Source: Minisyncoccota bacterium
GTDB taxonomy: Bacteria; Patescibacteriota; Minisyncoccia; Phycocordibacterales; GCA-2401445
Assembly: GCA_040879725.1 (NCBI GenBank)
Contig: JBBDJV010000015.1
Coordinates: forward strand, 32,127 to 96,126
DNA length: 64,000 bases
Direction: 5' to 3'
Positions 613-32,166 of the stretch are shown here, piece by piece (position 1 is the first letter of the stretch; each line of letters begins with the position of its first letter). A program made the translations under genes and the position numbers. The notes below the pieces were generated by a model. That model was not told the origin of the DNA and searched no databases. It saw only the letters and a program-made list of their open reading frames with translations.

Positions 613-695
613 CTATACACAAAAGGGTAAAAACCCTAGTAATAATTTGATATAATTAACATACATATCCAATAGTTGTTGGGGGCTTTTTTACA

Positions 696-12600: not shown

Positions 12601-15600
12601 CTACTACAGTAACCGGTGGAAGTTTGCAGATTATCGGAACATCAGATGCTACGACGACTATAGATAGGCAGAGTACGGGGAATTACGGTATTGAGATAGA
12701 AGGTGGTACGTTCACGGCTTCTTACTATAGTTTTGAAAATATGGGTTCTCGCGGACTTGGGTTTAGCGGAACACCGACAGTAACAAATATTTCAGATGGA
12801 GATTTTGAGTTGGGACTCGAAGGACAGACGCTCATAACGGTAGACGCAAGTGTTATTGATGCAAATCCAACTAAAACATTCAGTAGAAATCGTTTTGCTA
12901 CAGCAGGTTCTGTTACGAGTGGAATAAACGTTACTGTGGAGGGAACGTCCGTAAGTTCGTGGAGGTTTAGTGACCACTATGGTGATTTGGACGGTGAAGC
13001 AAATGACAGCGATCCAGGCGGTGATCCAGGATATGTTATTTGGGATGATAGCGCGGGAGATATTACTGTATCTGGTGTTGTGTATCAGAACGATAGAGTT
13101 ACTCCTGCTGGTGGAGCAGTGTGTGATGGAACAACGAATGTCGTTCGGCTTTTGGTGGAGGGAGCGGGTAGCTACTTCGTGCCGTGTGCTTCAGGAACAG
13201 GAGTATACACAATACCAAGTGTAACTTTCTTACCGAGCGATGTCTTCACGGTATTTCTTGATAATGCATCCGAAGATGCTGTAGCGGTAACGTACGGAGC
13301 ACTTACCAGTATTGCAAATATGCACCTTTATACAGATCACGTAATAGTGCGTCACGAAGGAGTAGACCCGATTACCATAAGTGAACTTGCGGTATATGAT
13401 GGAGGTGATGATGCGGATATTCCGTATACAACAACCCTAACTCCCGACACACTTTCTACTGGAGCGGGTACCGCTCTCTATGTATGGCAAGGAAAAACAT
13501 TTACTCCGGGAGGAGATGTGACGGTTACGGGAAATGGTACAACCAATGAGTATGACGGTACGCTGTATGTGTGGCAGAATGCAAATTTTGTTGCCGAAGG
13601 CAGTGAGTATTTCACTATCGGAGGAAGCTTGATTGCGAGCTCGAGCGCGGTTATTACCAGTGCTAGTTCAGATTTTGACTTTACTTCAACCGCTACCGGA
13701 AAAGTGGTACGCACAAACAGCTCGCCACTAGCTTCAGTTACATTCTCAGGTAGTGGAGGCGCGTGGTCCTTCCCCGAAACAACCGTTTCAGTGGAAGATG
13801 ATTTTACCATTACTGCTGGATCGGTAAGTCTTCCTGTGGGCACAACGACAGTTGCCGGATCATTTATAAATAATGGAGGAACCTTCACGCATAATAGTGG
13901 AACAGTGCAGTTAAATGGAACAGAAGTTGGTAATTCAATTCAAGTTGGTGGATCAGACTTCTATAACCTAACAATCGGAGGTACGGGTTCTTGGACATTC
14001 CTTGATACCAATGCAACCACAACAAATCAACTTCGCTTTGAGTATGGCTCAACAACGCTTCCGTCAGGGGTACTTACTGTGGGCGCTACACTTACTTCTG
14101 TAAATGGAACCTTTAATCACAACAACGGAGATGTGAAATTTATTTCTACCAGTTCAGGTAATGTTATTACCCAAAAAGGCTCAGGATTTGGCGGAATAAC
14201 TTTCGATGGTACTGGAGGATCTTGGTCATTTGCACAAAGTGTCGCTACTACTACCAAGGACTTCGCTATTGTAAACGGTTCGGTTGCATTACCGACAGAC
14301 ACGCTTCGGGTCGGAGGTTCGTTTATTAACGAAGGTTCATTCAGTCACAGTACCGGTACGGTGTTAATGAATTCCGCACTTACGGGAGAGGTAATAACTC
14401 CGGGAAGTGATCCATTCCATAACCTAACAATACAAAACAGCGCAGGGGGATGGACGCTTACCGGTTCAGCTACCACAACAAATAACTTTAACCTTTCTAC
14501 CAGCACAAGCTTTACTCTTGTTCCGGGTTCAACCTTGAATGTCGGGGGTTCATTTACAAATACCTCGGGCGGTGCGGGAACTTCGTGGGACGGAACGACG
14601 ATAAACCTTACTGGAGGCAATAGTTATTCAATAAATGGACGATTAAGCTCCGGAGATGAATACAATACTCTGGTAGTATCTACAACAACAAAAGCTCGCC
14701 TCTGGTCCTCATCCGCAGGAACCACCACTGTCGCAAGTACCGCATCACTCTACTCACAAGACCACGCAGGAGTAGACGGTGACCTCTACATCTGGGGAGA
14801 CTATCGCCGAACTACCGGTAATGACTACTGGAGCTATGCTACTGACTTTGACGGAACCGCACTTACCGGAGGAAGTGAACGACAAGTAAACGTACGCTTT
14901 GCTCCAAATGCTTCTACTACAGTAACCGGTGGAAGTTTGCAGATTATCGGAGCATCAGATGCTACGACGACTATAGATAGGCAGAGTACGGGCACGTATG
15001 GTCTTTCTGTGCTCGGAGGAACAGTAAATGTAGATAGATATCAGATAAGAAATATTGATGAATTGGGATTGTATATTTCTGGACAACCTACCGTTACCAG
15101 TCTTTCAAATGGAGATTATGAGCTCGATAAAGAGGGTGGTTCAATGATTACTGTTTCTTCCACAACGATTGATTTCAACCCATCGCTCTTTATTGGTGGT
15201 GCAAAATTTGCAACATCTACTGGAATAACAAGTGGATTCAACGTGACGTTGCTGGGAACACCAATAAATGCGTGGACTTTTACTGGGCATAGCGGAAATT
15301 ACGATGGAGAAGCATATGACAGTGATGGTGGAGATGCATGTGGAAAAATACGATGGAGTGACAGTGTGTGTCTCTTTGTAAGTCAAGAAAGCTATAGATT
15401 TAGAAATGATGACGGAGGGGAAGGGGTCCCTAATGACGAGTGGTACCATTCAGATTGGGATAAACGTATGAGAATTGCGATTACAAACGCTTCCACTTCA
15501 GCGCTCACAAATCAACAAGTAAAAATTGAGTTACCAAAGGCCACTGATATGCAAAGTGATTACGGAGACCTTCGGTTTACCGACAACTCAGGAACAACGA

Positions 15601-17660: not shown

Positions 17661-17803
17661 CTATAGTAGAGGAGGTATTGACGATTACAGTCAGTGGTAT
17701 ACACTAGATATATTATGAATAGAGTAGGAAACATATTCTTTTTCTTTGCCTTTAGCCAGCACTCTGGTTGAGGTTTTGCTTGTTTCTGGAAATATTCTTG
17801 AAA

Positions 17804-17836
17804 AAAGCCAGCTCTCAACCAGAGCTGGCTTTTTAG
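17804..17836 (+). terminator. rho-independent terminator after the giant gene
   Basis: A perfect 9-bp stem 'gccagctct'/'agagctggc' with loop 'caacc', followed by TTTTT. Confidence 0.7.
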
Positions 17837-18249: not shown

Positions 18250-19755
18250 ATGCATTTTTTACGTACCAACATTTTAGTTAAAATAACACTCTATACCTTT
18301 TTGATTGTGGGAGTAGGTGTATTTTCTTTCCATAAAGGAAGTTTGGCGCAGGTAAATAATCGTACTGCGCCTGTCATAACTGACATTTCTATCGCTGAAG
18401 TAAAAGAATCAGAGGTCCGTATTTTATGGGAAACCGATAAAGAGTCTGACTCAATGGTAAACTTCGGACTCGATAAGCGATATGGAATTATTCGTCTTCC
18501 TGGAACAAGTCGAACCGACCATGAGTTAACTATTGGAGAGTTGAAACCTTCAACCACATACCATTTTCGAGTTGTTTCTTCTGATGCATCCGGAAACCAA
18601 AGCATTTCTGGTGACTTTCAGTTTACTACGAAGGGAATAGTAGAAGTAGAAGATATTGAGCGGGTTGAATCTCGCGAACAGCGCGCGGTTGTTGAACAAG
18701 CGGTAGCGCAAATTGATGAAATTACCGATGTTGAAGCTCTTGATATTGTCATTCAAAAAATACAACAAGTTGCGTCAGGTATTACCGATGATTTAACTAT
18801 TATCGGAACACCAGATGTTGAACCTCGTACAACAACAGCAGTTGTGCGATGGGTAACAAACAGACCCTCTGATTCCACTGCATCATTTGTTTCCGAAGAT
18901 GACTACAATCCACAAAGTAGCAATCCATACACCTCTTCTCAGAGTAGCAATGATGAAAATGTTACGGACCACCAAGTTACTATTATTGGTCTTGAACCAT
19001 TTACTGTTTATCGTTTGCAAGTGTCATCACGTGATCAGTTTGGTATCGTGGGAAAAAGTAAGGAGATAACCTTTACTACAAAATCAGTATTGCCGAATAT
19101 TACCAATATTGATTTAGAGAAAATAGAAGAAACCTCAGCTACTATTGTGTGGAATACAACTGTCCCTGCTAAATCTCTTATTGATTATGAAAACTTAGAT
19201 ACTGGTGAAATTAAGTCACTCGGTAGTCCAAGTTTGGCGACAAGTCACTCGCTCCGTCTTTCAGACCTTACGCTTGGAACACAGTACCGCGCGATAATTA
19301 CCGCAGAAAATGCGGGAGGAGAAAGAGTAAGTAGTGATCCTATTACCTTCGTTACTATTATAGATGAAGAACCTCCAGTGATTTCAAAAGTAACAAACGA
19401 ATCAACGCTTTTCCCCGGTTCGGAGGCTAGAATTCAGACCATTATTAGCTGGGAAACCGATGAGCCTTCACTGTGTAATTTCTTCTATCACCAAGGGTTG
19501 GTTCCGGGAGTAGTTCCTGAACAAACATTGCCAAGAAAGGACGATAACTATAAACAGGAACATGTACAGGTTGTTGTAGACTTCGCCCCTTCAACCGTAT
19601 ACAAGTTTTGGGTAATGTGTGAGGATGCATCCGAAAATGAATCTCGTTCGGAAGACTTTGTATTGTTTACTCCCGAGAAGGAAAAAAATATTATTGATAT
19701 AATTCTTGAGAACTTCGAAGGAACGTTCGGTTGGGTTCAGGATATCGGAGCTTAA
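18250..19755 (+). CDS. membrane-anchored protein with four FN3-like repeats (likely extracytoplasmic partner of the downstream ABC transporter)
   Basis: An N-terminal TM (ITLYTFLIVGVGVFSF) is followed by four ~95-aa repeats, each ending in '...Y.FRV.S.D..GN.S.S..F.FTT'-like strands. The stop TAA overlaps the next gene's start in TAATATG. Confidence 0.7.
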   Translation: MHFLRTNILVKITLYTFLIVGVGVFSFHKGSLAQVNNRTAPVITDISIAEVKESEVRILWETDKESDSMVNFGLDKRYGIIRLPGTSRTDHELTIGELKPSTTYHFRVVSSDASGNQSISGDFQFTTKGIVEVEDIERVESREQRAVVEQAVAQIDEITDVEALDIVIQKIQQVASGITDDLTIIGTPDVEPRTTTAVVRWVTNRPSDSTASFVSEDDYNPQSSNPYTSSQSSNDENVTDHQVTIIGLEPFTVYRLQVSSRDQFGIVGKSKEITFTTKSVLPNITNIDLEKIEETSATIVWNTTVPAKSLIDYENLDTGEIKSLGSPSLATSHSLRLSDLTLGTQYRAIITAENAGGERVSSDPITFVTIIDEEPPVISKVTNESTLFPGSEARIQTIISWETDEPSLCNFFYHQGLVPGVVPEQTLPRKDDNYKQEHVQVVVDFAPSTVYKFWVMCEDASENESRSEDFVLFTPEKEKNIIDIILENFEGTFGWVQDIGA

Positions 19756-19756
19756 T

Positions 19757-21082
19757 ATGGCAAAAGCACAAATTTTCGCAAAAAACCTGGAGGTTACATA
19801 TAACGAAGGAAAGTCCAATGAATTCAAAGCATCTCGTGATTTGAACGTGGAAATTTTTGCTGGAGAATACATTATTCTTTTCGGTCCGTCTGGATGCGGA
19901 AAGTCAACACTACTCTACTCAATCCTTGGAGCACTTCCACCTTCTCGGGGCCAAATGCTCGTAAAGGGAGACGATATATATAAGTATGAACAGGATCAGT
20001 TGGTTAATTTCCAAAGAAATGTTATCGGGATTATGTATCAGGCTTTTAACCTTATTCCGTCTATCAGCGTGCTCGATAATGTAGTACTTCCGCAAATATT
20101 TGCATCAGTAGATAAAGCACGGAGAGATAACCGGGGGAGAGATTTGCTTAGGCGCTTTGGTGTGGATCATATTGCAAACAAACTTCCAACAAACCTATCA
20201 GGAGGACAGATGCAACGTGTGGCTGTAGCTCGTTCACTGGTAAATGACCCAGAGATTCTCTTAGCTGATGAGCCGGTAGGTAACTTGGACAGTATTTCCG
20301 CGGAGCAGGTTATGAACACTCTTGAGCAGATTAATTTGAATGATAAAAAAACTGTTATTTTGGTTACTCACGATGCGAAATATTTACCCTATGCGCACCG
20401 CGTGTACTATTTGCGTGATGGTAAAAATGAACGAGAGGTGCCAAATCCAGAAAAAAAGCAAATTAAAAAAGTAGAGGCTGGTAAAACTATAACCACTGAA
20501 ATTGAAAAGCTGGCTCGTATGTATCCGTATTCTTCTATTGAAGAACTTCGAGTAAAAAGCCTGGTTAATTATCTTATCGAAGATATTGACTTTGATCAGC
20601 TTGTTATTCTTGAAAAAGCGGTAGAAGATGTGATCAAGGGGAGAATGGGTGATAATCGATTTCTCGATATTTTAAATAAGCGCATAGGAGAGGGTGGGGT
20701 TGGTTTTAGTAAAGCTCGTTCAGAGATGATAACAAAAAAGATTTTCACTATAATGGAAGAGTCTCGAGATATAACCCGCTTTAGGTCAACTATTGATATG
20801 GATTTAGGTTATTACTACCAGTCAAGATTTGTTGAACGACTCAAAAAGTATACCCTCAGTGAAGTTAAAATAAAGTTAAGCAAAGAACAACATGAGCGAT
20901 TAGATGACTTTATCTCAGATAGACTTACAGGACTAACTCGTCGGCATGAATTTCTACTTGCGCTTGATAAGCCTGTGAAAGAGGGTGGTTTAGGTCTGAA
21001 CAAAAAGGCTTCTGCTCTTATTTCACGACATATTGAAAAACTACTTGCACAGGGAGTAAGCTATATAATCGCAAAACACTAA
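19757..21082 (+). CDS. ABC transporter ATP-binding protein (MacB/LolD/FtsE class) with an atypical ~200-aa C-terminal extension
   Basis: Walker A GPSGCGKST, the signature LSGGQMQRVAVAR, Walker B ILLADEP and H-loop VTHD are all present. The extension is two tandem ~90-aa repeats, each containing an 'EGG(V/L)G(F/L).K' core. I moved the start from the ORF-track ATG at 19706 to the ATG at 19757, which sits in TAATATG overlapping the upstream stop. Confidence 0.85.
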   Translation: MAKAQIFAKNLEVTYNEGKSNEFKASRDLNVEIFAGEYIILFGPSGCGKSTLLYSILGALPPSRGQMLVKGDDIYKYEQDQLVNFQRNVIGIMYQAFNLIPSISVLDNVVLPQIFASVDKARRDNRGRDLLRRFGVDHIANKLPTNLSGGQMQRVAVARSLVNDPEILLADEPVGNLDSISAEQVMNTLEQINLNDKKTVILVTHDAKYLPYAHRVYYLRDGKNEREVPNPEKKQIKKVEAGKTITTEIEKLARMYPYSSIEELRVKSLVNYLIEDIDFDQLVILEKAVEDVIKGRMGDNRFLDILNKRIGEGGVGFSKARSEMITKKIFTIMEESRDITRFRSTIDMDLGYYYQSRFVERLKKYTLSEVKIKLSKEQHERLDDFISDRLTGLTRRHEFLLALDKPVKEGGLGLNKKASALISRHIEKLLAQGVSYIIAKH

Positions 21083-21083
21083 T

Positions 21084-22292
21084 ATGCAACTCATTGACCT
21101 CGCAAAACTTTCAACTCGTATGTTTAAAACCAACCCGGCTCGTACATGGCTGACTATTTTAGGTATGGGTGTGGGTACTGGAGCGGTGGTGGTGCTGGTG
21201 GGATTGGGTTTTGGTTTGCAGGGAGTATTGCTCGAGCAGATTGTGTTCGGAGAAACACTGCTTTCGCTTAACGTTTCAAGCCCTACCTCTGATACGGTTA
21301 AGTTAAACGATGAAGCGATTGAAGAATTTTTTGCAATAGAAAATGTTCTCGATGTTTCTCCGAGAGCGAGTTTTCCCGCGTCGGTTACGTACGGTGATCT
21401 AACGGGGAATATTTTCTTAGAGGGGTTAAACCCCGCGTATGTTCGGTATACTGGTACACAAGCAGAAGCAGGAGAAGTGTTTACGGAAGAAACAAGAGCA
21501 GAAGATCAGAAAAGTGTTCTTCTCACACAGTCAGTACTAAAGCTTTTTGGTGTCGAAACACCAGAGGAAATTATCGGAGAGTCCGTAACGTTTAGAATTT
21601 TTCTTGAAACTGGCGTGGGTGAGGTTGCCAGAGAGGTTATACTTCGCGATAAATATATTGTAAAAGGAGTAACTAACGATGCAACGTCGCTTTCGGCGCA
21701 AATGCTTATGGAAGAGCTCGAACAGCATGTTGGAATTGAGCTTTATGATCGTGCCCAAGTGCGCGTTTCAAAAACTGACTTTCTCACCCCTACTACGGAC
21801 GCACTTATTGAAATGGGTTTTAATGTAACTGCGCTATCCAAGACAGTGGAACAGGCAACAAAGATTTTCCAAGGAGTGCAAGCCGTTCTCGCATCATTTG
21901 GCGGTATAGCGCTCATTGTGTCTGCAATCGGAATGTTTAACACCATGACCGTTACGCTCCTTGAGAGAACGGGAGAAATTGGAATTATGCGTACCATCGG
22001 TGCGTCGTCTCTTGATATTAAGATTTTATTCGTTTCGGAAGCGGTTATTGTAGGTTTTTTGGGAGGGCTTATGGGTATAGCCATAGGTATGGGTATTGGG
22101 ATTACGTTAAATACAGGTATAAATATTCTAGCAAGCCAGTTCGGTGGTGTTGCAGTGAAGCTTTTTCGGTTTCCGTTTTGGTTCCTCGCATTTATTTCTA
22201 CATTCTCAGGAATTGTTGGTTTTATGACGGGTATTTTCCCAGCACGGCGGGCGGCAGGACTTAATCCACTCGATGCTATTCGTTACAAGTAA
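21084..22292 (+). CDS. ABC transporter permease, FtsX/MacB type (4 TM, large extracytoplasmic domain between TM1 and TM2)
   Basis: TM1 ARTWLTILGMGVGTGAVVVLVGLGFG is followed by a ~220-aa loop and a C-terminal FtsX core 'IALIVSAIGMFNTMTVTLLERTGEIGIMRTIGAS'. It starts 1 nt after the ATPase stop. Confidence 0.85.
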   Translation: MQLIDLAKLSTRMFKTNPARTWLTILGMGVGTGAVVVLVGLGFGLQGVLLEQIVFGETLLSLNVSSPTSDTVKLNDEAIEEFFAIENVLDVSPRASFPASVTYGDLTGNIFLEGLNPAYVRYTGTQAEAGEVFTEETRAEDQKSVLLTQSVLKLFGVETPEEIIGESVTFRIFLETGVGEVAREVILRDKYIVKGVTNDATSLSAQMLMEELEQHVGIELYDRAQVRVSKTDFLTPTTDALIEMGFNVTALSKTVEQATKIFQGVQAVLASFGGIALIVSAIGMFNTMTVTLLERTGEIGIMRTIGASSLDIKILFVSEAVIVGFLGGLMGIAIGMGIGITLNTGINILASQFGGVAVKLFRFPFWFLAFISTFSGIVGFMTGIFPARRAAGLNPLDAIRYK

Positions 22293-22396
22293 ACGTTGTA
22301 CACAGGTTGTTTGCTTTTAAGAGACAAAAGTTATGTATAATAAGAGCAAGACGCATTTAGTGTCATTTTCTTTACAATAAACATCGTGCGATATAT

Positions 22397-24229
22397 ATGC
22401 ATATAATTAAAAGATTTAACAAAGCACAAGCTACTGCAGGAAAGGTAACTATCGTTACTGTTCTCGCGGGGATAATGGTTTTTGCCGCCTTTTATGTGCT
22501 TAACCTCGACGAACACACCGTTCCCAAGGTTGAAGCTCAAAGTAATGCAACTACTTCCGTGGAAGTCCTTAACACTCCACCTGATTGGACTGTTGATGCG
22601 GAAGAAGGTGCGGAATCATCTATCACAAATCCTACTAACTCAGGGGATGCTGTTTCGTGGGTAGCAACAGGAACCGACGCTAACGGAGAAGATTATTACC
22701 TTCTTATCTGTAATGCGTCTTCTACACCGATTGCTAATTCAAACGCTGCTCCAGAATGTACTGGTGGAACTCAGTGGGCAGTTTCAACCTCTACCGCAAG
22801 TGGTCAGCCGGCAAGTGTCTCAACTACCACAGCAGAAGCATGGGATGAGAGCAATGACTGGTATGCGTATATTTGTGATGATAATACAAGTACACCACGG
22901 TGTAATGCTGCACATCGACAAGGAAGTGGCTCGACAGCATCTCCGTTTTTAGTAAACCACAGACCAACTTTTTCACTGTTTAGCGATAGTTCACCAACTC
23001 TTCCTGGTGCTGTAATTACATGGCACTCAACATCAACTGACTCTGACATCGAGGGTGGAGCTGACACTCTTATACTTCATGTATGTAAAGAAGCAGACTT
23101 TACCGGCACAGAATGTGGTGCGGGAGGTTTCTGGGCTTCAACAACACTTACCTATACAGCAGACACTGCCGCAAGTACAACGCTTCCAGTTCCATTGCAA
23201 GACGATGATTATGAAGCATACGGGTATGTTGTTGACAACCACGGTCACGCAGCAACAGGTGGGCAGCAAGGAGCCGACTCTGTTCTAACTGTCGCAAATG
23301 CTACCCCTACGGTTAGCTCGGGTACTATCAATATTAACGGATTAGCTGACCTTGAGCTTGCGATTGCGGGAGGAGAAACTGAAAACTTCACACTTTCATT
23401 TGCTGTAAGTGATGGAAATAGCTGTGTTGCGAATGCATCTACTACGTATGAAGTGGCAACTGTTTCTGCAGACTTCTATCGCTCAGGAGTTACAGCTGCG
23501 AGCTGTAATTCTGCAGGCGATTATGATCCGAATAACTGCTATACTGGAACAGTAGCTACAACAACATGGAATTTGGTTTGTACACAAGATAATACATCAT
23601 GTGGAGGTCCTGATGACTCAACAGTTACGTGGAGCTGTACGTTCCCTCTATGGTTCCTCGCTGATGCAACTGATGCAGGAAGTTTCTATGCGGCGGAAGA
23701 TTGGAGAGCTACAGTAACTGCTACAGATGATAATTCTTCCGCAAGTACTCCAACAGAAAGTGCTGGTGGACAAGATGTCCTCCAACTTATGTCTTTCGTT
23801 CTTAATACTTCTGATATTCCATACGGAGCCCTAGAGCCAGGTCAGACAACAGAGGATTTGATCGCAACAACAACGATTGCTGCAAATGGTAATGTTGGCC
23901 TTGACCAAAACCTCTATGGAGAACATATGTGTCCAGGGTATAGTGGTCAAGGAACATGTCCATTCCAAAGTCCAGCTACCTCTTCAATCCATGCTGATAA
24001 CCAAAAATTCGGAACAACAACCACTGGATATGTAGATAATGATGCGTATGCTCTGGCTACAACAACTCAAGAGCTTGAGCTAAACCTTGCTAAAACAATA
24101 AGTACATCAACACTCTCTGAGGCAGATATTTACTGGGGTATTGGTATCCCTGGTACTATTACTTTCGCTGGTGAATATTTCGGAGAAAATACATTCCAAA
24201 TGGTTACTTCGGAATCTGCTGAGTGGTAA
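22397..24229 (+). CDS. secreted/N-terminally anchored protein whose C-terminal half is homologous to the giant protein's C-terminal domain
   Basis: N-terminal hydrophobic segment VTIVTVLAGIMVFAAFYVL. The N-terminal half contains two internal Cys-containing repeats. The C-terminal half aligns to 16870..17657. Confidence 0.75.
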   Translation: MHIIKRFNKAQATAGKVTIVTVLAGIMVFAAFYVLNLDEHTVPKVEAQSNATTSVEVLNTPPDWTVDAEEGAESSITNPTNSGDAVSWVATGTDANGEDYYLLICNASSTPIANSNAAPECTGGTQWAVSTSTASGQPASVSTTTAEAWDESNDWYAYICDDNTSTPRCNAAHRQGSGSTASPFLVNHRPTFSLFSDSSPTLPGAVITWHSTSTDSDIEGGADTLILHVCKEADFTGTECGAGGFWASTTLTYTADTAASTTLPVPLQDDDYEAYGYVVDNHGHAATGGQQGADSVLTVANATPTVSSGTININGLADLELAIAGGETENFTLSFAVSDGNSCVANASTTYEVATVSADFYRSGVTAASCNSAGDYDPNNCYTGTVATTTWNLVCTQDNTSCGGPDDSTVTWSCTFPLWFLADATDAGSFYAAEDWRATVTATDDNSSASTPTESAGGQDVLQLMSFVLNTSDIPYGALEPGQTTEDLIATTTIAANGNVGLDQNLYGEHMCPGYSGQGTCPFQSPATSSIHADNQKFGTTTTGYVDNDAYALATTTQELELNLAKTISTSTLSEADIYWGIGIPGTITFAGEYFGENTFQMVTSESAEW

Positions 24230-24269
24230 AATAGACTTTGCTCTCCACAGAATATCTCCTTATTTTTCT

Positions 24270-24297
24270 TGCGAAATCTAGCATAAGCGGTATGATA
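24270..24297 (+). promoter_or_regulatory. candidate sigma70-type promoter
   Basis: TTGCGA, a 16-nt spacer, then TATGAT. Confidence 0.35.
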
Positions 24298-24340
24298 GGT
24301 ATACACAGGCATAGTCTGGCTTGTTTGTACTTGGCCTATA

Positions 24341-25276
24341 ATGAAAATTTCTAAAAAACTGGCATATACTCTTGTTCTTGTAATTTTTCTGTGTGCACCG
24401 TTTTTCCTGCATGCGAGTTTTGGTATTACGCCACCATACGTAAAGAATACAAGCTTAACTCGTAACTCTGAGTTTACACAGAAAATTACGTTAGTGCGCG
24501 GTGATCCAGTTTCTGACCTGAAGGCGGAGCTCACTATGGATGTTCCTGGAGCAAATGACTGGATCACCATAGATAAAGGTATGACCTTTTTGTTACCTAA
24601 AGGGGAGCAGAAGGTACCTATGTATGTTACTGTAAAAATTCCCGATGGAGCTCGTTTTCAAAAATATAAAGGTAACATCCGTATACGAACATCTCCGGCA
24701 GACGGGGAGAGAAGTGGTGGTGGAGCCGTGTCCATTGCTCTCGGTGCACAAATCGATGTTGACTTTGATGTTATAGATAGAAAAATTTTTGACTTTAGAG
24801 TAAGAAAGATAGCAATTGAAGATGTTGCTGAGGGGCACTCACTCGCATGGTTATATTTTCCCGGGAAAATTAATTTCAAAATCTCACTTGAAAATACCGG
24901 TAACATAGATGTCGCACCTTCGAAAGTAGTCTTTGATATTTTTGATTTTAACGGGGAGACATTACTCGAAACTACAGAAAGTAAAAATAAAATAGAAAAG
25001 GTTAAGCCGTTTGAAACCAAAGAGGTTGTAGCAGAACTTCCTACTTCACTTCCAGCAGGAAGCTATTTGGTACGGTATGTAATTTATAACAATGATGAAG
25101 TGAAGCAAGAAGGGGAGCTCAATCTCTCAATAGTACCTTACGGCACACTCGCGCAAGCTGGATATGGTTTCAGTGGTCTGTCTATCCCGCATAAACTTAC
25201 GATTATTGTCCCTATAGCTGTTCTTCTTTTGTTTGTATTTTTGGTATTTAAAAAGTCTAGGAAAAGAAAAAGATAA
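24341..25276 (+). CDS. surface protein with a signal peptide, two beta-sandwich-like domains, and a C-terminal TM plus polybasic tail
   Basis: N-terminal signal-like LAYTLVLVIFLCAPFFLHA. The C-terminal anchor reads LTIIVPIAVLLLFVFLVF followed by KKSRKRKR. Confidence 0.6.
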   Translation: MKISKKLAYTLVLVIFLCAPFFLHASFGITPPYVKNTSLTRNSEFTQKITLVRGDPVSDLKAELTMDVPGANDWITIDKGMTFLLPKGEQKVPMYVTVKIPDGARFQKYKGNIRIRTSPADGERSGGGAVSIALGAQIDVDFDVIDRKIFDFRVRKIAIEDVAEGHSLAWLYFPGKINFKISLENTGNIDVAPSKVVFDIFDFNGETLLETTESKNKIEKVKPFETKEVVAELPTSLPAGSYLVRYVIYNNDEVKQEGELNLSIVPYGTLAQAGYGFSGLSIPHKLTIIVPIAVLLLFVFLVFKKSRKRKR

Positions 25277-25282
25277 TTAACG

Positions 25283-26416
25283 ATGAATAGAATATTCTTT
25301 TCTATTACTTTGTTTTGTATCTCATTTGGGCTACTATACCCGTTTTCTTTGAGTGCGATAACGATAGGAGTTGCCTCCACAACAATCAGAGTTTCTATTT
25401 GTGGCGACGGAATAGTTAATCAAGGGGAAGACTGTGATCCTCCCGGATCAGGAAATTACAGTACGAGTATTGCTGGCAGGGAGTGTAACTCGCTGTGTGA
25501 GTGGGCGCCGTACTGTGGAGATAGTGTCGTGCAAACAAGTTTCGGAGAAGAATGTGATGACGGAAATAATACCTCAAAAGATTTTTGTTCCGCTGAGTGT
25601 CTTGCTGAGGAAATTGTATTAAATACTGGTGGTGGAGGAGGAGGGGGAGGTGCGGGTATTTTCCCAGGAGGAAGTTTTGCTCCACCTTCAAACTCAGACG
25701 TTACTATAACTGGTAAAGCGTATCCAAACTCCACTGTTACTATCCTTAAAGACGGAGAGGTTATTGGTGAGGTAGCTACAGATAGTAATGCAGATTTTTT
25801 ATTCACAACAAGTGGTATCACTCCGGGAACCGCAACATTCGGTTTTTGGGCAGAAGATAGCAAGGGGCTACGTTCTATTTCCTATACTACGACCTTTGAG
25901 GTTATCCAAAGTGCAGTAACAACTGTTTCCGGAGTATATCTTCCACCAACAATACGAGTTGAACCTCGTTCCCTTGATCGAGGAGACACACTTACTATTG
26001 ATGGAACTTCAGTTCCAGATGCTGTTATTACTGCCCAAATAAGTGGAGATGATGAGTACTTGGAAACAGTAACTGCGGAAACAGACGGTTCTTGGGAGCT
26101 TTTGTTTGATACATCACCGATACCAAACGATTCTTATACTGCTCGTGCGTCTTTCAGACGAAGTGACACAAACGGATTAACAATTGAAAGTGGTTTTGGG
26201 CAAGCACTTTCATTTTTTGTGGGAGTCGATGCGGTACCCGATACCGGACCCTCAGACCTAAACCTTGATGGGAGAATAAATATTGTGGACTTTTCCATTA
26301 TGCTTTTTCATTGGGGAACAGACGGAGCCGGTTCAAGCCCATCGGCTGACATAAATGGAGATGGAAGAGTAAACTTAACAGACTTTTCCATTATGATTTT
26401 CAACTGGACGGGATAG
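25283..26416 (+). CDS. secreted protein with a cysteine-rich repeat, an Ig-like region and a C-terminal dockerin
   Basis: Signal peptide. 'CGDGIVNQGEDCDPPG' and 'CGDSVVQTSFGEECDDGNNTSKDFCSAEC' are Myxococcus-type Cys-rich repeats. Then a poly-Gly linker. The C-terminus has two dockerin Ca-loops, 'DLNLDGRINIVDFSIMLFHW' and 'DINGDGRVNLTDFSIMIFNW'. Confidence 0.65.
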   Translation: MNRIFFSITLFCISFGLLYPFSLSAITIGVASTTIRVSICGDGIVNQGEDCDPPGSGNYSTSIAGRECNSLCEWAPYCGDSVVQTSFGEECDDGNNTSKDFCSAECLAEEIVLNTGGGGGGGGAGIFPGGSFAPPSNSDVTITGKAYPNSTVTILKDGEVIGEVATDSNADFLFTTSGITPGTATFGFWAEDSKGLRSISYTTTFEVIQSAVTTVSGVYLPPTIRVEPRSLDRGDTLTIDGTSVPDAVITAQISGDDEYLETVTAETDGSWELLFDTSPIPNDSYTARASFRRSDTNGLTIESGFGQALSFFVGVDAVPDTGPSDLNLDGRINIVDFSIMLFHWGTDGAGSSPSADINGDGRVNLTDFSIMIFNWTG

Positions 26417-26471
26417 GTGTGCATAATCTTTTATAACGAAGCGTGTACCACATGCTATACTCAATAGTACA

Positions 26472-27536
26472 ATGGTGATGAATTGGAAAACTTTTTTGGT
26501 GCGAGTGATAAGTACTTCTGTATTACTTTTTTTTATTTTGCCTGGGTTGGTTGATGCATCTCTTTTATACCTTGATCCTACCGGAGCTGAGTATAGAAAA
26601 GGAAGTACGTTTGTAGTGACCGTTCGGCTTGATCCTGAAGGAGAGTGTGTAAATGCTGTTAATGCTGTTATTACCTACCCAACAGAGGAGCTTACTGCTT
26701 TTGATGTATCACGAAGTGGTTCTATTCTTTCGCTCTGGGTTGAAGAGCCATATATAGATGAAGTAAATGGAAAGATTTATTTCCAGGGAGGTATTCCAAA
26801 TGGATACTGTGGGAGAATAGACGGCGATCCAGGCAATACGAATATTATTGGTAGAATTGCTTTCAGGAAACCCGGTGGTCTGAGTGTTGGGGGAGCGAGT
26901 GAGGGAGGAGTGCTTGAGGTAGCTTTTGATGAAGAAGAAAGTGAAGCGCTTGCAAATGATGGCCGAGGTACACCAACAGACCTTACATTTCAGAATGGAA
27001 CATACATAATTTCTCCTGACGCTCCTCTAACTGATGATAGCGTGTGGTTTAACGCACTTCGAGATGACAGAATTCCTCCAGAGAGCTTCACTGTCACCCT
27101 GCACACAAAAGATGATATACAGAAAGGAAAGTACTTTGTTGTTTTCTCTACAACCGATAAACAGAGTGGCTTGGATGAATATCAAATAATGGAGGAATCG
27201 ATAGATAATCCGGGTTTTGTTGAATGGAAAAAAAATACCAGAGTACTTTGGGAGCAGGCAAAAAGCCCGTATGTTTTGAAAGACCAAAATTTGAATAGCG
27301 TTATACGAGTGAAAGCAATAGACAAAGCAGGAAATGAACGTATTGCAGCATATGTCCCAGGGGAAGATGAACGACCGGCAACACAGACGTCAGGTAGTAG
27401 CATGATGACTTACGCGGGTGGAGTGTTGTTGGTACTCGTACTAATATTGATTGGTTTTATTATTAGAAAAAGGGTAAATAGGAGAAAAACATCAGTCGGT
27501 GTAGATACTCCGGGTTCAATTAATCAAGAAAAGTAA
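26472..27536 (+). CDS. membrane-anchored surface protein with an N-terminal cohesin-like domain (paralog of 27539..29272)
   Basis: Signal peptide. 'GSTFVVTVRLD...VNAVNAVITYPTEELTAFDVSRSGSI...GKIYFQGG' resembles a cohesin beta-sandwich. The C-terminal TM is GVLLVLVLILIGFII followed by RKRVNRRK. Confidence 0.5.
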   Translation: MVMNWKTFLVRVISTSVLLFFILPGLVDASLLYLDPTGAEYRKGSTFVVTVRLDPEGECVNAVNAVITYPTEELTAFDVSRSGSILSLWVEEPYIDEVNGKIYFQGGIPNGYCGRIDGDPGNTNIIGRIAFRKPGGLSVGGASEGGVLEVAFDEEESEALANDGRGTPTDLTFQNGTYIISPDAPLTDDSVWFNALRDDRIPPESFTVTLHTKDDIQKGKYFVVFSTTDKQSGLDEYQIMEESIDNPGFVEWKKNTRVLWEQAKSPYVLKDQNLNSVIRVKAIDKAGNERIAAYVPGEDERPATQTSGSSMMTYAGGVLLVLVLILIGFIIRKRVNRRKTSVGVDTPGSINQEK

Positions 27537-27538
27537 GT

Positions 27539-29272
27539 ATGAAAAAAGGTTTATTTGTGTTTATCGGTATCTGTGCTGTTTTCGTAAGTGTGCTTACCTT
27601 TCTTCCCTCGGTTGCTTACGCAGCGGGGTCACTCGTGCTTTCTCCTCCAACCGGTGTGTATACTGCTGGGAGCACGTTTACCGTTCGGGTACTTGTAAAT
27701 ACAGATGGACAAGCAATAAATGCAGCGGAAGGTGAGATTACTTTCAATCCAAGCGAGCTGTCTGTTGTGGCTGTGTCACAAGCCGGATCTATTTTTAATC
27801 TTTGGACGGTGGAGCCGACATATTCAAATGGAGCAGGAACAATTTCATTTGGTGGTGGAAGTCCGAAGGGGTACACCGGTAGCTCAGGAACGGTTATTAC
27901 TATTACGTTCCGCGCCCTGAAAGAAACCAGTGCCACAGTACGATTTTCTTCCGGGTTGATACTTGCTGCGGACGGAAAGGGTACTAATATTATTGGAGCT
28001 CTTTCTTCTGGTTCTTACACACTACAGTCAAGCAAGCAAACACCTCCTCCTGAAATTGTAGTACCTGATAATTCTCCAAGTGCTCCAGCGGTTGTTTCTT
28101 CGACACATCCGAATGAAACAAAGTGGTATCCACTTACAGACGCAAAACTTTCTTGGGAGGTACCCGACAGTGTGAGTGCGGTGCGATTACTTATCGACCA
28201 AACAGAGTATACAATTCCTACCGTATTTTACGGTGAGCCGATAAGTGAAAAGTTGATTGAAGACCTTGATAACGGCGAGTGGTATTTCCATGCACAGTTT
28301 AGGAACGCAGACGGATGGGGCAAGGTGCGACACTTTAGAATAGGAGTTGATACTGAGTTGCCGTCTTCTTTTGAAATACGCGAACCTGAAGACCGAGATC
28401 CAACCAGTCCAAACACACAACTTATTTTTGACGCTACCGATGAAGTTTCGGGTATTGCGCGATACGAAATCCAGATTGGGAATGATGAGCCGATTGTATG
28501 GATAGATACTGAAGGAGATGGTTTATATACACTTCCAACACTTCCAGCAGGAAAACATACTCTTATTGTAAAGGCATTTGATGGTGCTGATAACTATCTT
28601 GTGCAAACCAAGACTGTTACGATTGTCGCACTCGGAGCTCCTACGTTTACCGAGTATCCTGACACTATCTCAACCGATACTATTTTAGTTATGCGTGGTA
28701 CCGCTATTCCAAACAGTACTGTTACCGTGTGGACCAGACGAGGAGGAGAAGAGCCGGTTCCTTACACACTGACATCTGATGCTGATGGAGGATTTACCTT
28801 TATCTCTGATAATGAGCTCGCAAAAGGAGTTCATACATTTTGGGCAACAGTAACCGACGAGCGGGGAGCTCAGAGCGAGCCAAGTGCTGAGGTTAAGGTA
28901 GTGGTCAGAGACCCGGGGTATGTCAGAATCGGATCATTTGCTCTCAGTATTCTTTCACTTATAGTTCCATTGGTTGGTGTTATTGCGCTTCTGGTTTTCC
29001 TCTTCTGGTATACTCGCCATAAAATTATTTTGTTACGAAAGCGATTAAATAAAGAAGTGTTTGAAGCGGAAGCCGCATTACATAAAGCGTTTATCACTTT
29101 GCAGAAGGGAGCAGAGAAACAAGTGAAGGCTCTTGAGGCAGTTTCTGAGAAGCGTAAGCTTACTGCAGAGGAAAAAGATATTCTCGCAAACCTTAAAAAG
29201 AATCTGACTCAAGCGGAAAAGGCGGTCGCCAAAGAGATTGAAGATATTGAAAAGGTACTGAAGAGTAATTAA
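27539..29272 (+). CDS. membrane-anchored surface protein: cohesin-like N-terminal domain, Ig-like domains, TM helix and cytoplasmic coiled-coil tail
   Basis: 'GSTFTVRVLVNTDGQAINAAEGEITFNPSELSVVAVSQAGSIFNLW...ISFGGG' is paralogous to the N-terminus of 26472..27536. The TM is IVPLVGVIALLVFLFWY and the protein ends '...IEDIEKVLKSN', like the fragment at 1..612. Confidence 0.6.
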   Translation: MKKGLFVFIGICAVFVSVLTFLPSVAYAAGSLVLSPPTGVYTAGSTFTVRVLVNTDGQAINAAEGEITFNPSELSVVAVSQAGSIFNLWTVEPTYSNGAGTISFGGGSPKGYTGSSGTVITITFRALKETSATVRFSSGLILAADGKGTNIIGALSSGSYTLQSSKQTPPPEIVVPDNSPSAPAVVSSTHPNETKWYPLTDAKLSWEVPDSVSAVRLLIDQTEYTIPTVFYGEPISEKLIEDLDNGEWYFHAQFRNADGWGKVRHFRIGVDTELPSSFEIREPEDRDPTSPNTQLIFDATDEVSGIARYEIQIGNDEPIVWIDTEGDGLYTLPTLPAGKHTLIVKAFDGADNYLVQTKTVTIVALGAPTFTEYPDTISTDTILVMRGTAIPNSTVTVWTRRGGEEPVPYTLTSDADGGFTFISDNELAKGVHTFWATVTDERGAQSEPSAEVKVVVRDPGYVRIGSFALSILSLIVPLVGVIALLVFLFWYTRHKIILLRKRLNKEVFEAEAALHKAFITLQKGAEKQVKALEAVSEKRKLTAEEKDILANLKKNLTQAEKAVAKEIEDIEKVLKSN

Positions 29273-29274
29273 CA

Positions 29275-29303
29275 AAAATACCCCTTTAAAGGGGTATTTT
29301 TGT
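29275..29303 (+). terminator. rho-independent terminator
   Basis: 'aaaaataccccttt aaa ggggtattttt': a 10-bp stem followed by a T-run. Confidence 0.75.
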
Positions 29304-29358: not shown

Positions 29359-29928
29359 ATGGATGATGTATACGAAAAGAAAATATACGAATACTACCTG
29401 CGAGAGAAACGAATTCCCGTGTATCGTGTTATTGCAAAGCTTTGTGGTTTCGCTTCTACAAATGCCGTAAGTCGTTTAGTAACACGGTTGCTCGAGTCAC
29501 GCTTCCTTGAACGTAATTCTCGAGGAAAATTAATTCCCGGAGCGCGTATGGGAAGTGTTCGTTTGCTGGGTCTTGTTGAGGCGGGTTTTCCTTCTCATGC
29601 TGAAGAAGCTGACTTAGACACGATAACCATAGATGAATTTTTAATCGAGAATAGAGAAGCGAGTTATATGTTAAAGGTAAAGGGTGACTCTATGATCGAC
29701 GCTGGTATTTGTCCGGGTGACTTTGTTATTGTAGAGCGAAAGAATACCGCAAAAGTGGGAGATATTATCGTTGCCGAGGTGGACCAGGAATATACGATGA
29801 AATACTTGGCAGAGAAAAATGGAGTGAGATATCTCAAGCCTGCAAATAAAAAGTATCGACCTATTTTCCCTTGTGAAAGTCTAACAATAGTTGCAGTAGT
29901 TCGTTCAGTGATCAGAAAATATGCATGA
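29359..29928 (+). CDS. lexA: LexA-like repressor (wHTH plus S24 peptidase domain)
   Basis: N-terminal wHTH. The catalytic Ser is in 'KGDSMIDAGI' and the Lys in 'TMKYL', with the same spacing as LexA/UmuD. Confidence 0.8.
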   Translation: MDDVYEKKIYEYYLREKRIPVYRVIAKLCGFASTNAVSRLVTRLLESRFLERNSRGKLIPGARMGSVRLLGLVEAGFPSHAEEADLDTITIDEFLIENREASYMLKVKGDSMIDAGICPGDFVIVERKNTAKVGDIIVAEVDQEYTMKYLAEKNGVRYLKPANKKYRPIFPCESLTIVAVVRSVIRKYA

Positions 29929-31148
29929 CGCAACGATGCATCTTACATCTTGATGGAGACGGTTTTTTTGCCGGTTGCGAAATGGCGGTTAACCCAAAAC
30001 TTAAAGGAAGAGCGGTTGTTGTTGGTGCCGAGAAGGGGATTGTAACCGCGTTGAGCTATGAAGCCAAAGCACTCGGAATCGCGCGGGGTATGGCTACGTT
30101 TCAGATACGAAAAGACTTTCCTGAAGCGGTGGTACTGCCGGGCAATTACCGCTTGTATCGTGAGTTATCTAAAAGAATGAATGCGATTGTTTCGAGATAC
30201 GCGCACAGGGTTGAGCCATACAGTATCGATGAGTGTTTTGCTGATATTACGGGTATTCCCGAACGTTTTGGAAAAACTCCGGAAAGCTTTGGACGCATGG
30301 TGCAGAAAGTGCTTTTGTCGGAACTAAACGTTTCTTTTTCAATGGGTATTGGCAGTACGAAAGTTCGCGCAAAAACAGCATCAAAACTAGAAAAACCTTT
30401 TGGCTGTAGTGTGTTTGAACTGCGCAAAAATCAAAATAGCTTAATGGCACTACCTGTCGGATCTTTGTGGGGAATAGGCAAAAGTAGCGCGATGGCTTTG
30501 AATGCACTTGGCATTTGGACTGTCGGGGATTTTATGGCAAAGGAGAGGTTTTTTATCAATAATTTTTTTAATAAGCAGGTATGTGAATTATGGAGTGAAC
30601 TGAAGGGTGAGTCGTTGTACGATATTTCAGCTAAGCGTGAGTCTCCTCAGTCGGTAAGCCATACGCGTACATTCACACCAGCAAGTGGATCACTTAAAAC
30701 ACTATGTAGAGAGCTTACGTGCCATGCGGAAGCAGTGGCATTTCGTTTGCGGATGCAAGGTCTCGCTGCACAGGAGTATTCTTTTTTTGTGAAAACAAAA
30801 AGTTTCGAGTATAAAACATTCAAAGTGTCTTTTGTATCACCAACGCATGACGATCATGAAATTGTACCCGAAATACTTAGGTGTTTACGAAATGCCATAG
30901 TGCCCGGGGGAATGTACCGAGCAACCGGAGTTACAGCTCTTGGTGTTGTTCCGTCTATTGCTGTGTCGGGGAATATGTTTGCGCGAGAAGTAAATTCAAA
31001 GGCTCTGTACGGGGCATTTGACCGTATTTTGCGAAGGTATGGCAGTAGTGCAATCATGCTGGCATCCGGAATGCATCCCCAAAGAAAGGCAAAGAAGAAG
31101 TTCGAAGAGCTTCATTTTTCGATACCCTGTATCGGGTATGTGGATTAG
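29925..31148 (+). CDS. Y-family DNA polymerase (DinB/UmuC-like)
   Basis: 'ILHLDGDGFFAGCE' and 'SIDECFADITG' are the Y-family palm motifs. It overlaps lexA by 4 nt. Confidence 0.8.
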   Translation: MTQRCILHLDGDGFFAGCEMAVNPKLKGRAVVVGAEKGIVTALSYEAKALGIARGMATFQIRKDFPEAVVLPGNYRLYRELSKRMNAIVSRYAHRVEPYSIDECFADITGIPERFGKTPESFGRMVQKVLLSELNVSFSMGIGSTKVRAKTASKLEKPFGCSVFELRKNQNSLMALPVGSLWGIGKSSAMALNALGIWTVGDFMAKERFFINNFFNKQVCELWSELKGESLYDISAKRESPQSVSHTRTFTPASGSLKTLCRELTCHAEAVAFRLRMQGLAAQEYSFFVKTKSFEYKTFKVSFVSPTHDDHEIVPEILRCLRNAIVPGGMYRATGVTALGVVPSIAVSGNMFAREVNSKALYGAFDRILRRYGSSAIMLASGMHPQRKAKKKFEELHFSIPCIGYVD

Positions 31149-31179: not shown

Positions 31180-32166
31180 ATGGTATCGATATTACATATA
31201 CTGATTGTACTTGCGGGAATTTCCGGTTTTTTTCTTGCGTACTACATTCATCACAAAAAAGTAACCAACACTCGATTAGTATGTCCCGTAGGAGCAAACT
31301 GTGAAGCGGTAGTTCATAGTGAATATTCAAGCTTTTTGGGCGTCTCACTTGAGTACTGGGGAATGCTCTACTATGCGTCAATTGTTTTTTCTTACATATG
31401 GATAGGGCTATTGCCTGAAACGGTACCTTCTCTTGTGTATCTGGGAATTATTGCGCTTACTGTGAGCGGCTTTATTTTTTCTTTGTACTTAACTTCAATC
31501 CAAGCATTTGTTATTCGTCAGTGGTGCACGTGGTGTCTTACTTCAGCAGGACTTTCTACTTTGATATTTTTCTGTACCATAGCGGGAAGCATGGAAGGCA
31601 TCGGTTCTCTTATTACAGACAACCTTATGTTGCTCTCATCAATTCACGCACTTTCACTCGCACTCGGAGTTGGAGCAATAACAGTTAATGTTATTTTCCT
31701 CTTTAAGTTTGTGAGTGACTATGTGGTTACTATTGGAGAGTACGAAACACTAAAAACAGTGAACAATATTGTATGGGTGGCACTCGGACTATTTGTTATT
31801 ACTGGTGTCGGGTTACATATCCTTACGCCGATTATTGAGTACGAAGGCTTTTTCTTATTAAAAATGACTACAGCGCTTTTGATAACAATAACGCTCTGGT
31901 TCACACAGTTTGTTATTGTGCCTCAGTTTATGCAGGCTATTACCACAGACGGGGAACCGCCTTCTTCTGTTCGTTCTCAGCTTCACCAAAGAGTATTTAT
32001 TACCGGTAGTGTAAGTCTCGTTGCGTGGTACGCATTATTTGGAGCGAACTTATTTATCCAAGCGGTGCAAAGTGTTACCATTCTTTCTATAGTGTTCTTG
32101 GTTCTTCTTGCGGGTAGCGTGACAGGAGGTTTGGCACTTGAGCAAGTTGTCGCTCATCGGAAATAG
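31180..32166 (+). CDS. VKOR (vitamin K epoxide reductase) family membrane protein with additional C-terminal TM domain
   Basis: A Cys pair (CPVGANC) and a CxxC redox motif 'WCTWC' sit in a polytopic membrane context. About 5 further TM helices follow. Confidence 0.6.
   Translation: MVSILHILIVLAGISGFFLAYYIHHKKVTNTRLVCPVGANCEAVVHSEYSSFLGVSLEYWGMLYYASIVFSYIWIGLLPETVPSLVYLGIIALTVSGFIFSLYLTSIQAFVIRQWCTWCLTSAGLSTLIFFCTIAGSMEGIGSLITDNLMLLSSIHALSLALGVGAITVNVIFLFKFVSDYVVTIGEYETLKTVNNIVWVALGLFVITGVGLHILTPIIEYEGFFLLKMTTALLITITLWFTQFVIVPQFMQAITTDGEPPSSVRSQLHQRVFITGSVSLVAWYALFGANLFIQAVQSVTILSIVFLVLLAGSVTGGLALEQVVAHRK

Follow-up and report, generated by a model that had tools for sequence, protein, structure and literature searches.

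Three consecutive genes in the 64-kb window analyzed here, the whole of a stretch of DNA from a bacterium of the candidate phyla radiation (CPR), encode the two halves of a putative cohesin–dockerin pair. The first, which we call A, specifies a secreted protein with a C-terminal dockerin, and the next two, B and C, specify membrane proteins that each carry an N-terminal cohesin. We consider it rather probable that these three proteins constitute a non-cellulosomal docking and anchoring module of a lineage-wide cell-surface apparatus of the Paceibacteria (Parcubacteria, CPR), where cohesin–dockerin pairs probably hold non-enzymatic structural proteins, associated with fibres or pili, on the membrane of a wall-bearing monoderm cell without a covalent bond. 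The metagenome-assembled genome (MAG) is labelled Candidatus Paceibacterota bacterium at NCBI; its proteins for this region are identical to those of the window and lie on a contig of 106 kb, with locus tags of approximately WDZ88_02915 to 02975.

A dockerin protein is encoded next to two membrane-anchored cohesins

The three open reading frames (ORFs) lie on the forward strand, where a preliminary description had placed them (Table 1). Protein A starts with a signal peptide and two Cys-rich repeats (DUF4215/myxo_disulf), which a poly-Gly linker joins to a pair of Ig-like domains; the dockerin is C-terminal. The Dockerin_1 hidden Markov model (HMM; Pfam PF00404), proposed earlier as a check on this protein, matched residues 324-372 with 36.1 bits against a gathering threshold of 22.9 (E 7.3e-9). 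The module is made up of the two Ca-binding segments noted in the preliminary description, DLNLDGRINIVD-FSIMLFHW and DINGDGRVNLTD-FSIMIFNW. They lie in tandem, 31 residues apart, and in each a Ca-binding loop is followed by a helix of the form DFSIMxFxW. In a six-frame translation of the window, these two loops were the sole matches to the dockerin-loop regular expression, and they are not a chance feature. Among 62 A orthologues, 61-62 keep loop positions 1, 3, 5 and 12 and the DFSI helix unchanged. No blocks of the protein are better conserved than the dockerin repeats (0.73 and 0.78), and type I dockerins such as CelS were the best PDB sequence matches of the segment.

The Myxococcus-type repeats previously noted in the N-terminal part of A were recovered as well, by TIGR02232 (myxo_disulf_rpt, NCBIfam; 36.1 vs. 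20.8 bits) and, closer to its cut-off, by DUF4215 (Pfam; 28.7 vs. 27 bits), with a pappalysin Cys-rich repeat as the best PDB sequence match of these acidic segments. The Pfam domain Big_6 scored 36.1 bits against 27.6. Hydropathy analysis showed an N-terminal hydrophobic segment only, i.e. a signal peptide without a transmembrane (TM) helix, and the protein has 9 Cys residues. NCBI names it 'dockerin type I domain-containing protein'.

The cohesin of C was recognized directly by Pfam (PF00963, 38.3 vs. 24.1 bits, residues 42-145), and is the most conserved part of a protein that also contains a Big_13 domain (46 bits). In the B family, 13 of 41 members matched the same profile, all below threshold (best 6e-5). 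The N-terminal 165 aa of B are 33% identical to those of C (E 3e-18) and, judged by this similarity, the two proteins are paralogues, as had been claimed. The model of B has a cohesin fold by two structure-comparison methods, its nine-stranded jelly-roll being superposable on solved cohesins; the outcome that the preliminary description had named as fatal to its idea, an N-terminal domain folding as something other than a cohesin, was thus not observed for B. Cohesin-like N-terminal domains, proposed for both proteins, are upheld by Pfam for C and by the modelled fold, not by Pfam, for B. Invariant residues of B group on model strands 60-68, 89-96 and 101-112, which we take to be strands 3, 5 and 6 of the cohesin fold; as cohesins bind dockerins on their 8-3-6-5 sheet, this may be an indirect sign of dockerin binding. 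The family also has an invariant GGIPNGYCGRxxGDP loop and a Cys pair, neither of which is known from classical cohesins. PDB sequence searches with the B-family profile and with C gave nothing useful.

Hydropathy predicts a signal peptide in both B and C. In B, a TM helix at about residues 307-337 is followed by a basic cytoplasmic tail, in agreement with the C-terminal anchor described before. C also has a TM segment, at about residues 460-499, but not at its extreme C-terminus, since a cytoplasmic helical tail of about 80 aa follows. The C gene starts 2 nt past the B stop codon. At NCBI, C is an 'Ig-like domain-containing protein', and B and its upstream neighbours P311 and P610 are 'hypothetical'. 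By fold and motifs, the modules belong to the cohesin family and to the type-I-like dockerins.

The cluster is collinear across the Paceibacteria

The B family comprises at least 1214 clusters at 90% identity, all of about 340-350 aa, and occurs in at least 141 species-level genomes in a scan of one genome per species. The matches are labelled, as deposited, Paceibacterota, Kaiser-, Nomura-, Azam-, Nealson-, Adler- and Falkowbacteria, and Minisyncoccia. The arrangement had been called non-standard for small-genome episymbiotic bacteria; this distribution, and a cluster that is collinear across the Paceibacteria/Parcubacteria, show otherwise for this lineage. Nor had the modules escaped annotation, NCBI already naming the dockerin in A and the cohesin in C2, a further protein of the same MAG (see below).

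Gene order was compared in 80 species-level loci, whose called ORFs were classified by jackhmmer with the window proteins; counts are relative to B and include only loci with enough flanking sequence. The genes P610-P311-A-(X386)-B-C, where X386 denotes a pilin-like gene discussed below, are collinear and co-directional in the 80 loci, and at least 50 species-level Paceibacteria genomes have the collinear cluster. The gene directly upstream of B is A in 59 of 60 loci, and C follows downstream in 59 of 72. Further upstream, P311 was found in 51 of 57 loci, P610 in 50 of 54, a MacB-type permease in 40 of 51 and an ABC (ATP-binding cassette) ATPase in 38 of 48. Median gaps between ORFs were 3 nt from P311 to A and -8 nt from B to C, i.e. 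the called ORFs abut or overlap; these figures are lower bounds, because each ORF was started at its first in-frame start codon. There are three variants of the cluster: the minimal, window-like form accounts for 21 loci, and the long form includes an adaptor with both a cohesin and a dockerin. The near-invariant synteny of A, B and C strengthens the idea that these adjacent genes encode a docking pair. The putative interfaces of the dockerin and the cohesin are near-invariant, with about 60 triplets available, and strong purifying selection acts on exactly these two modules.

In the window, the order is FN3 protein, ABC ATPase, MacB permease, P610, P311, A, B and C, with gaps of 2-111 nt. The strong hairpin between the preceding giant gene and the FN3 gene probably separates two transcription units, and the weak hairpin 10 nt after the C stop codon, a consensus match only, is a possible end of the operon (Table 1). 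The short gaps, conserved order and flanking hairpins together indicate that the A-B-C trio is not an isolated oddity, and make it the invariant end of a putative operon of about 11 kb (18250..29272).

A second locus in the same genome encodes another dockerin and another cohesin

A search with the 64-residue dockerin of A returned many proteins of 470-650 aa with a 60-73% identical C-terminal dockerin and varied Ig-like N-terminal parts. Ten of these carriers, which we call the A2 type, have Ig-like domains only. They mark a second conserved locus, with the order X386 – P311-like – a protein of about 135 aa – FGE-sulfatase-like – A2 – HSP20 – C2 – giant protein, which keeps cohesin and dockerin genes without any ABC genes. 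Since positions 3334-9960 of one contig of this kind (L086) are 100% identical to positions 1-6627 of the window, the same genome encodes A2, HSP20 and C2 immediately to the left of the window.

In A2 (596/614 aa), a domain similar to a pilin N-terminal domain precedes two Ig-like domains and a dockerin whose motif is that of A. Its C-terminal 250 residues are 38% identical to the Ig-Ig-dockerin part of A (E 7e-49, BLASTP), and its N-terminal 200 residues or so align with the N-terminal half of X386 with an hhalign probability of 97.9 (E 6e-13). C2, named 'cohesin domain-containing protein' by NCBI, matches Pfam Cohesin (PF00963) and is a paralogue of C (41% identity, E 1e-84). The genome thus encodes a minimum of two dockerins of one type (A and A2) and no fewer than three membrane anchors with a single cohesin each (B, C and C2).

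The two cohesin–dockerin loci are separated by a giant ORF of 5654 aa, in which Pfam recognized only Ig-like domains (Bact_surface_Ig-like, Ig_Rha78A_N) and DUF2341; a dockerin, cohesin or X386-like domain was looked for in it and not found. In relatives, the gene after C2 is also giant (at least 2779 and at least 3901 aa, both cut by contig ends). In the four locus-2 contigs where the cohesin follows A2 (L086-L089, of which L088 and L089 share the same A2 protein), an HSP20 gene stands between the dockerin and cohesin genes, an odd position for a cytoplasmic chaperone family.

A proposed docking function that is not cellulosomal

The preliminary description had spoken of a cellulosome-like organisation, and this part of it does not hold. 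By Pfam, the cluster encodes no glycoside hydrolase (GH), polysaccharide lyase (PL) or carbohydrate esterase (CE) domain. The dockerin carriers are non-enzymatic: A, A2 and nine further A2-like carriers have only Ig-like or Cys-repeat domains, and none of these dockerins is borne by a carbohydrate-active enzyme (CAZyme). A scaffoldin with several tandem cohesins and a carbohydrate-binding module (CBM) was not found either, nor were S-layer homology (SLH) repeats. We consequently rejected a cellulosome as an explanation.

We propose instead that B and C would be exported by Sec and held in the cytoplasmic membrane by their C-terminal TM helices, each with an Ig-like stalk whose distal, N-terminal end presents one cohesin. 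A, secreted and without an enzyme domain, would plug its Ca-loaded, internally symmetric dockerin into the cohesin of B and/or C in a Ca-dependent manner, leaving its Ig-like domains and Cys-rich tip projecting from the cell. The near-identical helices of the two dockerin repeats may permit docking in either orientation or on either paralogue. Membrane stalks carrying A (and A2) could thereby span the wall of the monoderm CPR cell, and P610, P311 and usually the MacB-type transporter would be co-assembled parts or have roles in assembly.

A possible, distant link to Pam-type pili

Pam pili, described in 2026 in a Saccharibacterium, are membrane-tethered donor-strand-exchange filaments of two-domain pilins, assembled by membrane-anchored PapD-like chaperones and tethered by a TM-bearing protein (bioRxiv 10.64898/2026.03.03.709456). 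X386-type proteins match one NCBIfam model only, CPR_Pam_pilin_C (NF058581). This was the case for 21 of 25 X386-type members of the cluster at E<=0.1 (best E 2e-6), and the locus-2 members span the whole 148-position profile (E 9e-7 to 1e-3). These scores point to a distant similarity to Pam pilins, not to membership of the family. The window itself contains no X386 or pilin-like gene, and a PDB sequence search with the X386 profile gave nothing useful. We also compared X386 with B, and found no relationship; the idea of P610 as a Pam-type pilin was unsupported too, hhalign giving its C-terminal domain and its N-terminal region a probability of 2-3% against those of X386.

Some large proteins encoded beside the Paceibacteria clusters end in an X386-like linker and a Pam-pilin-C-like domain (L006:16175-19642, E 2e-21; L087:217-1476, E 5e-17). 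By analogy, these X386-tailed proteins resemble the two-domain tip adhesins of chaperone-usher pili. A2, for its part, combines a pilin-like N-terminal domain and a linker-like strand with the Ig-Ig-dockerin part, and has no C-terminal acceptor domain; we infer that this is the architecture expected of a chain-terminating, anchor-bearing subunit. The topology of P311 (signal peptide, beta-rich ectodomain and C-terminal TM helix) would suit a membrane-anchored, PapD-like Pam chaperone, without detectable sequence similarity. In two contigs (L085:6272-7934 and L087:7153-7995), though not in L088/L089, the gene directly before A2 is FGE-sulfatase-like (formylglycine-generating enzyme family), which hints at post-translational modification of a surface subunit. 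An unidentified modification has been reported on PamA (bioRxiv 10.64898/2026.03.03.709456).

As a tentative extension of the docking model, for which we would not yet claim an even chance, cohesin–dockerin docking in the Paceibacteria might take over the role of a transmembrane terminator and anchor the base of a Pam-like pilus formed by donor-strand exchange. The filament would then end in A2, whose dockerin would plug it into membrane-anchored C2, C or B. A, which combines the same dockerin with a Cys-rich head, would sit on the paralogous cohesins, either as a short fibril of its own or as a regulator. The part of membrane-anchored chaperone would fall to P311, and the MacB transporter would deliver the mechanical work that assembly or release requires. 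If true, this would be the first cohesin–dockerin anchoring of a pilus, and Pam-type pili would reach the largest CPR class.

Alternative explanations and points against the proposed function

The docks need not be dedicated. B, C and C2 could be interchangeable parts of a general display platform for many dockerin cargoes across the genome, comparable to a cellulosome with adhesins in place of enzymes, as might be suggested by the presence of one dockerin type on at least two proteins of one genome (A and A2), by the many carriers of 470-650 aa with similar dockerins and varied Ig-like N-terminal parts, and by an excess of cohesins (three) over known dockerins (two) in this genome. However, the other carriers examined turned out to be one family, A2, in one conserved context, each adjoining its own cohesin gene, C2. 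With the carriers examined in this position, dedicated pairs look likelier than a many-cargo system, and we think a general platform improbable. More improbable still is that the modules do not pair at all, the dockerin being a Ca-binding stabiliser and the sandwiches of B and C binding something else, such as host-cell glycans, peptidoglycan or other proteins of the cluster, for instance P610. Cohesin-like and dockerin-like modules are reportedly found singly in many non-cellulosomal proteins (a survey by Peer and colleagues in 2009 is said to have described this), and the invariant loop and Cys pair of the B family are unusual. Such independence is difficult to reconcile with the strict adjacency of cohesin and dockerin genes at both loci, in more than 50 species, with the fact that the two modules are the most conserved parts of their proteins, and with the cohesin+dockerin adaptor of the long cluster form.

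The ABC genes raise another question, that of whether the cluster is primarily a MacB-type mechanotransmission machine (like FtsEX, LolCDE or MacAB), with P610, P311, A, B and C as its substrates or adaptors and cohesin–dockerin contacts as incidental. An ATPase with a conserved extra C-terminal domain and a permease do lie directly upstream in about 78-79% of the loci with enough flank. Yet about one fifth of the clusters have no adjacent transporter and retain P610-P311-A-B-C, and locus 2 has no ABC genes; we consider a machine of this sort very unlikely.

Several observations weigh against the docking function that we favor, or against its pilus version. B has no Pfam match of its own, with Cohesin PF00963 included in the search (E<=1), and the linkage to the ABC/MacB genes, though frequent, is not universal. 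All matches to CPR_Pam_pilin_C scored 14-29 bits, short of the curated cut-off of 55. A lacks the pilin-like domain of A2, and may be a displayed cargo rather than a part of a filament. P311 and P610 have no significant similarity to Pam components, and Foldseek searches of the PDB with the P610 model gave low TM-scores and nothing more specific than tandem Ig/FN3 arrays (integrin legs, mastigoneme, alpha-2-macroglobulin). Lastly, the description of the Pam system includes no cohesin, dockerin or ABC component (bioRxiv 10.64898/2026.03.03.709456).

Other genes of the cluster and its surroundings

Scans of the P311 family gave only weak FxLYD/PACE S-layer-like matches. Its HMM weakly matches locus-2 proteins of 341-375 aa, two of which carry a weak WxLIP_PGBD mark. 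P610 was modelled (m0023e9fc1ad1, predicted local distance difference test score (pLDDT) 76) as about four disulfide-rich Ig/FN3-like beta-sandwich domains plus a low-confidence C-terminal domain. It has 14 Cys residues, and the alignment of its family shows 11 invariant and 3 nearly invariant Cys columns. PDB sequence searches with the P311 and P610 profiles gave nothing useful, and Pfam/NCBIfam scans of the two families gave weak generic beta-sandwich matches and no Pam or PapD match. The transporter genes are of the MacB type, a permease with MacB_PCD and FtsX domains and a separate ABC ATPase. The ATPase has a C-terminal helical extension of about 220 aa, containing two similar segments, GGVGFSKARSEMITKKIF and GGLGLNKKASALISRHIEKL, and the length of this extension is kept across loci (about 440 aa in total for the protein).

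The mature N-termini of the A and P610 families have in common a short beta-strand-like motif, ATT(S/T)V.(V/I). A strict regular expression found it in 11 of 71 A and 21 of 63 P610 members, against 1 of 2512 unassigned ORFs. The motif may serve as a donor strand, or else as a signal for processing.

Genes for a LexA-like Peptidase_S24 protein and a DinB/IMS polymerase follow C, and the same SOS-type pair occurs just upstream of locus 2 in L085 and L088, making it a recurrent neighbour of the surface loci. A gene of the VKOR family, involved in disulfide-bond formation, lies nearby, which fits with the Cys-rich nature of the exported proteins A and P610.

Table 1. Features of the window and of the adjoining contig (positions refer to the window unless a contig is named)
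Feature	Position	Strand	Description	Basis
3' end of C2	1..612	+	third cohesin anchor (494 aa)	L086 identity
A2, HSP20, C2 genes	L086:170-3945		immediately left of window
Giant ORF	696..17660	+	5654 aa, between the two cohesin–dockerin loci
Strong terminator-like hairpin	17802..17834	+	14-bp stem and T-run; after giant gene, before FN3 gene
FN3_501	18250..19755	+	N-terminally anchored, tandem FN3 / Pur_ac_phosph_N-like domains; first cluster gene	Pfam, synteny
ABC ATPase	19757..21082	+	ABC_tran	Pfam, 107 bits
MacB-type ABC permease	21084..22292	+	MacB_PCD and FtsX	Pfam, 56.3 and 56.0 bits
P610	22397..24229	+	610-aa exported protein, N-terminal TM/signal
P311	24341..25276	+	signal peptide, beta-rich ectodomain, C-terminal TM and KKSRKRKR tail; ends 6 nt before A
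A	25283..26416	+	secreted 377-aa protein	Pfam/NCBIfam above cut-off, hydropathy
Cys-rich acidic repeats of A	25394..25612	+	aa ~38-110	TIGR02232, DUF4215
Dockerin module of A	26252..26398	+	aa 324-372	Pfam Dockerin_1
Ca-binding loop 1 of A	26255..26290	+	DLNLDGRINIVD	dockerin-loop regex
Ca-binding loop 2 of A	26348..26383	+	DINGDGRVNLTD	dockerin-loop regex
ATT(S/T)V.(V/I) motif regions	25355..25400 and 22535..22580; loci L004-L046			strict regex
B	26472..27536	+	354-aa type-I membrane protein
Cohesin of B	~26556..27011	+
Ig-like domain of B	~27069..27356	+
TM helix of B	~27408..27479	+
C	27539..29272	+	577-aa type-I membrane protein
Cohesin of C	27662..27973	+
Big_13 domain of C	28658..28897	+	one of its Ig-like domains
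TM segment of C	~28934..29020	+
Cytoplasmic helical tail of C	29021..29269	+
Weak terminator-like hairpin	29282..29294	+	with T-run; 10 nt after C stop	consensus match only
Peptidase_S24 and DinB/IMS genes	29359..31148	+	after C
VKOR-family gene	31180..32166	+	near cluster

Comparison with known systems

Of the systems to which it can be compared, the A-B-C module would seem to work most like the non-cellulosomal pairs of Archaeoglobus fulgidus (2xdh) and Clostridium perfringens (2vo8, 2w1n, 2o4e), which likewise have single modules outside cellulose degradation. Those systems, however, link enzymes in toxin/glycosidase complexes or have unknown partners, whereas the modules described here are part of a deeply conserved surface cluster that also encodes membrane anchors, a MacB transporter and pilin-like proteins. 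The cellulosomal anchoring pairs considered (OlpC/OlpA type I of C. thermocellum, CohA2 of C. acetobutylicum and ScaC/ScaE of R. flavefaciens) share with the present one a two-repeat F-hand dockerin with an internally symmetric helix motif, matching CelS-type dockerins, and the division into a cell-attached cohesin carrier and a secreted dockerin carrier, which is here predicted. In contrast to these pairs, there are no glycoside hydrolases, CBMs or tandem cohesins here, attachment relies on a C-terminal TM helix in place of sortase or SLH repeats, structural Ig/Cys-repeat proteins act as carriers, and the host is a small-genome CPR bacterium. The B family also has its extra invariant GGIPNGYCG loop, which is not known from classical cohesins.

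The cluster resembles the Pam system (Troman et al. 2026) in being CPR-specific, in having X386-type genes in or beside it that match CPR_Pam_pilin_C below threshold, in the disulfide-rich nature of its exported subunits and in the occurrence of large proteins with a C-terminal pilin-like domain. P311, B and C are built like PamC/D/R, with a signal peptide, a beta-rich ectodomain and a C-terminal TM helix. Unlike the TM-bearing PamR, the anchor proposed here would be in two pieces, a dockerin subunit and a cohesin-TM protein. Pam has mainly been reported from Saccharimonadia and Microgenomatia (bioRxiv 10.64898/2026.03.03.709456), whereas the present cluster is found in Paceibacteria. We found no description of this cluster in the open-access literature, and only passing mentions of cohesins or dockerins in other CPR groups, among them an essential dockerin-domain protein in a Saccharibacterium (PMC10633639) and expressed cohesin and dockerin proteins in Shapirobacterales (10.1101/2021.08.21.457207).

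Significance for the Paceibacteria

Few CPR bacteria are as abundant, or as little understood, as the Paceibacteria, also in the way they attach to hosts. Judging from the open-access literature, a surface cluster that is built on cohesin–dockerin modules, collinear throughout the class and tied to Pam-type pilins, is new. A cluster built around a lock as well understood and easily assayed as the cohesin–dockerin pair offers a concrete handle on the Paceibacteria surface, and either module could serve as an affinity tag for recovering the native apparatus from enrichment cultures. More generally, the data would widen the use of the cohesin–dockerin interaction from the scaffolding of enzymes to what is apparently a structural anchoring role in a monoderm envelope.

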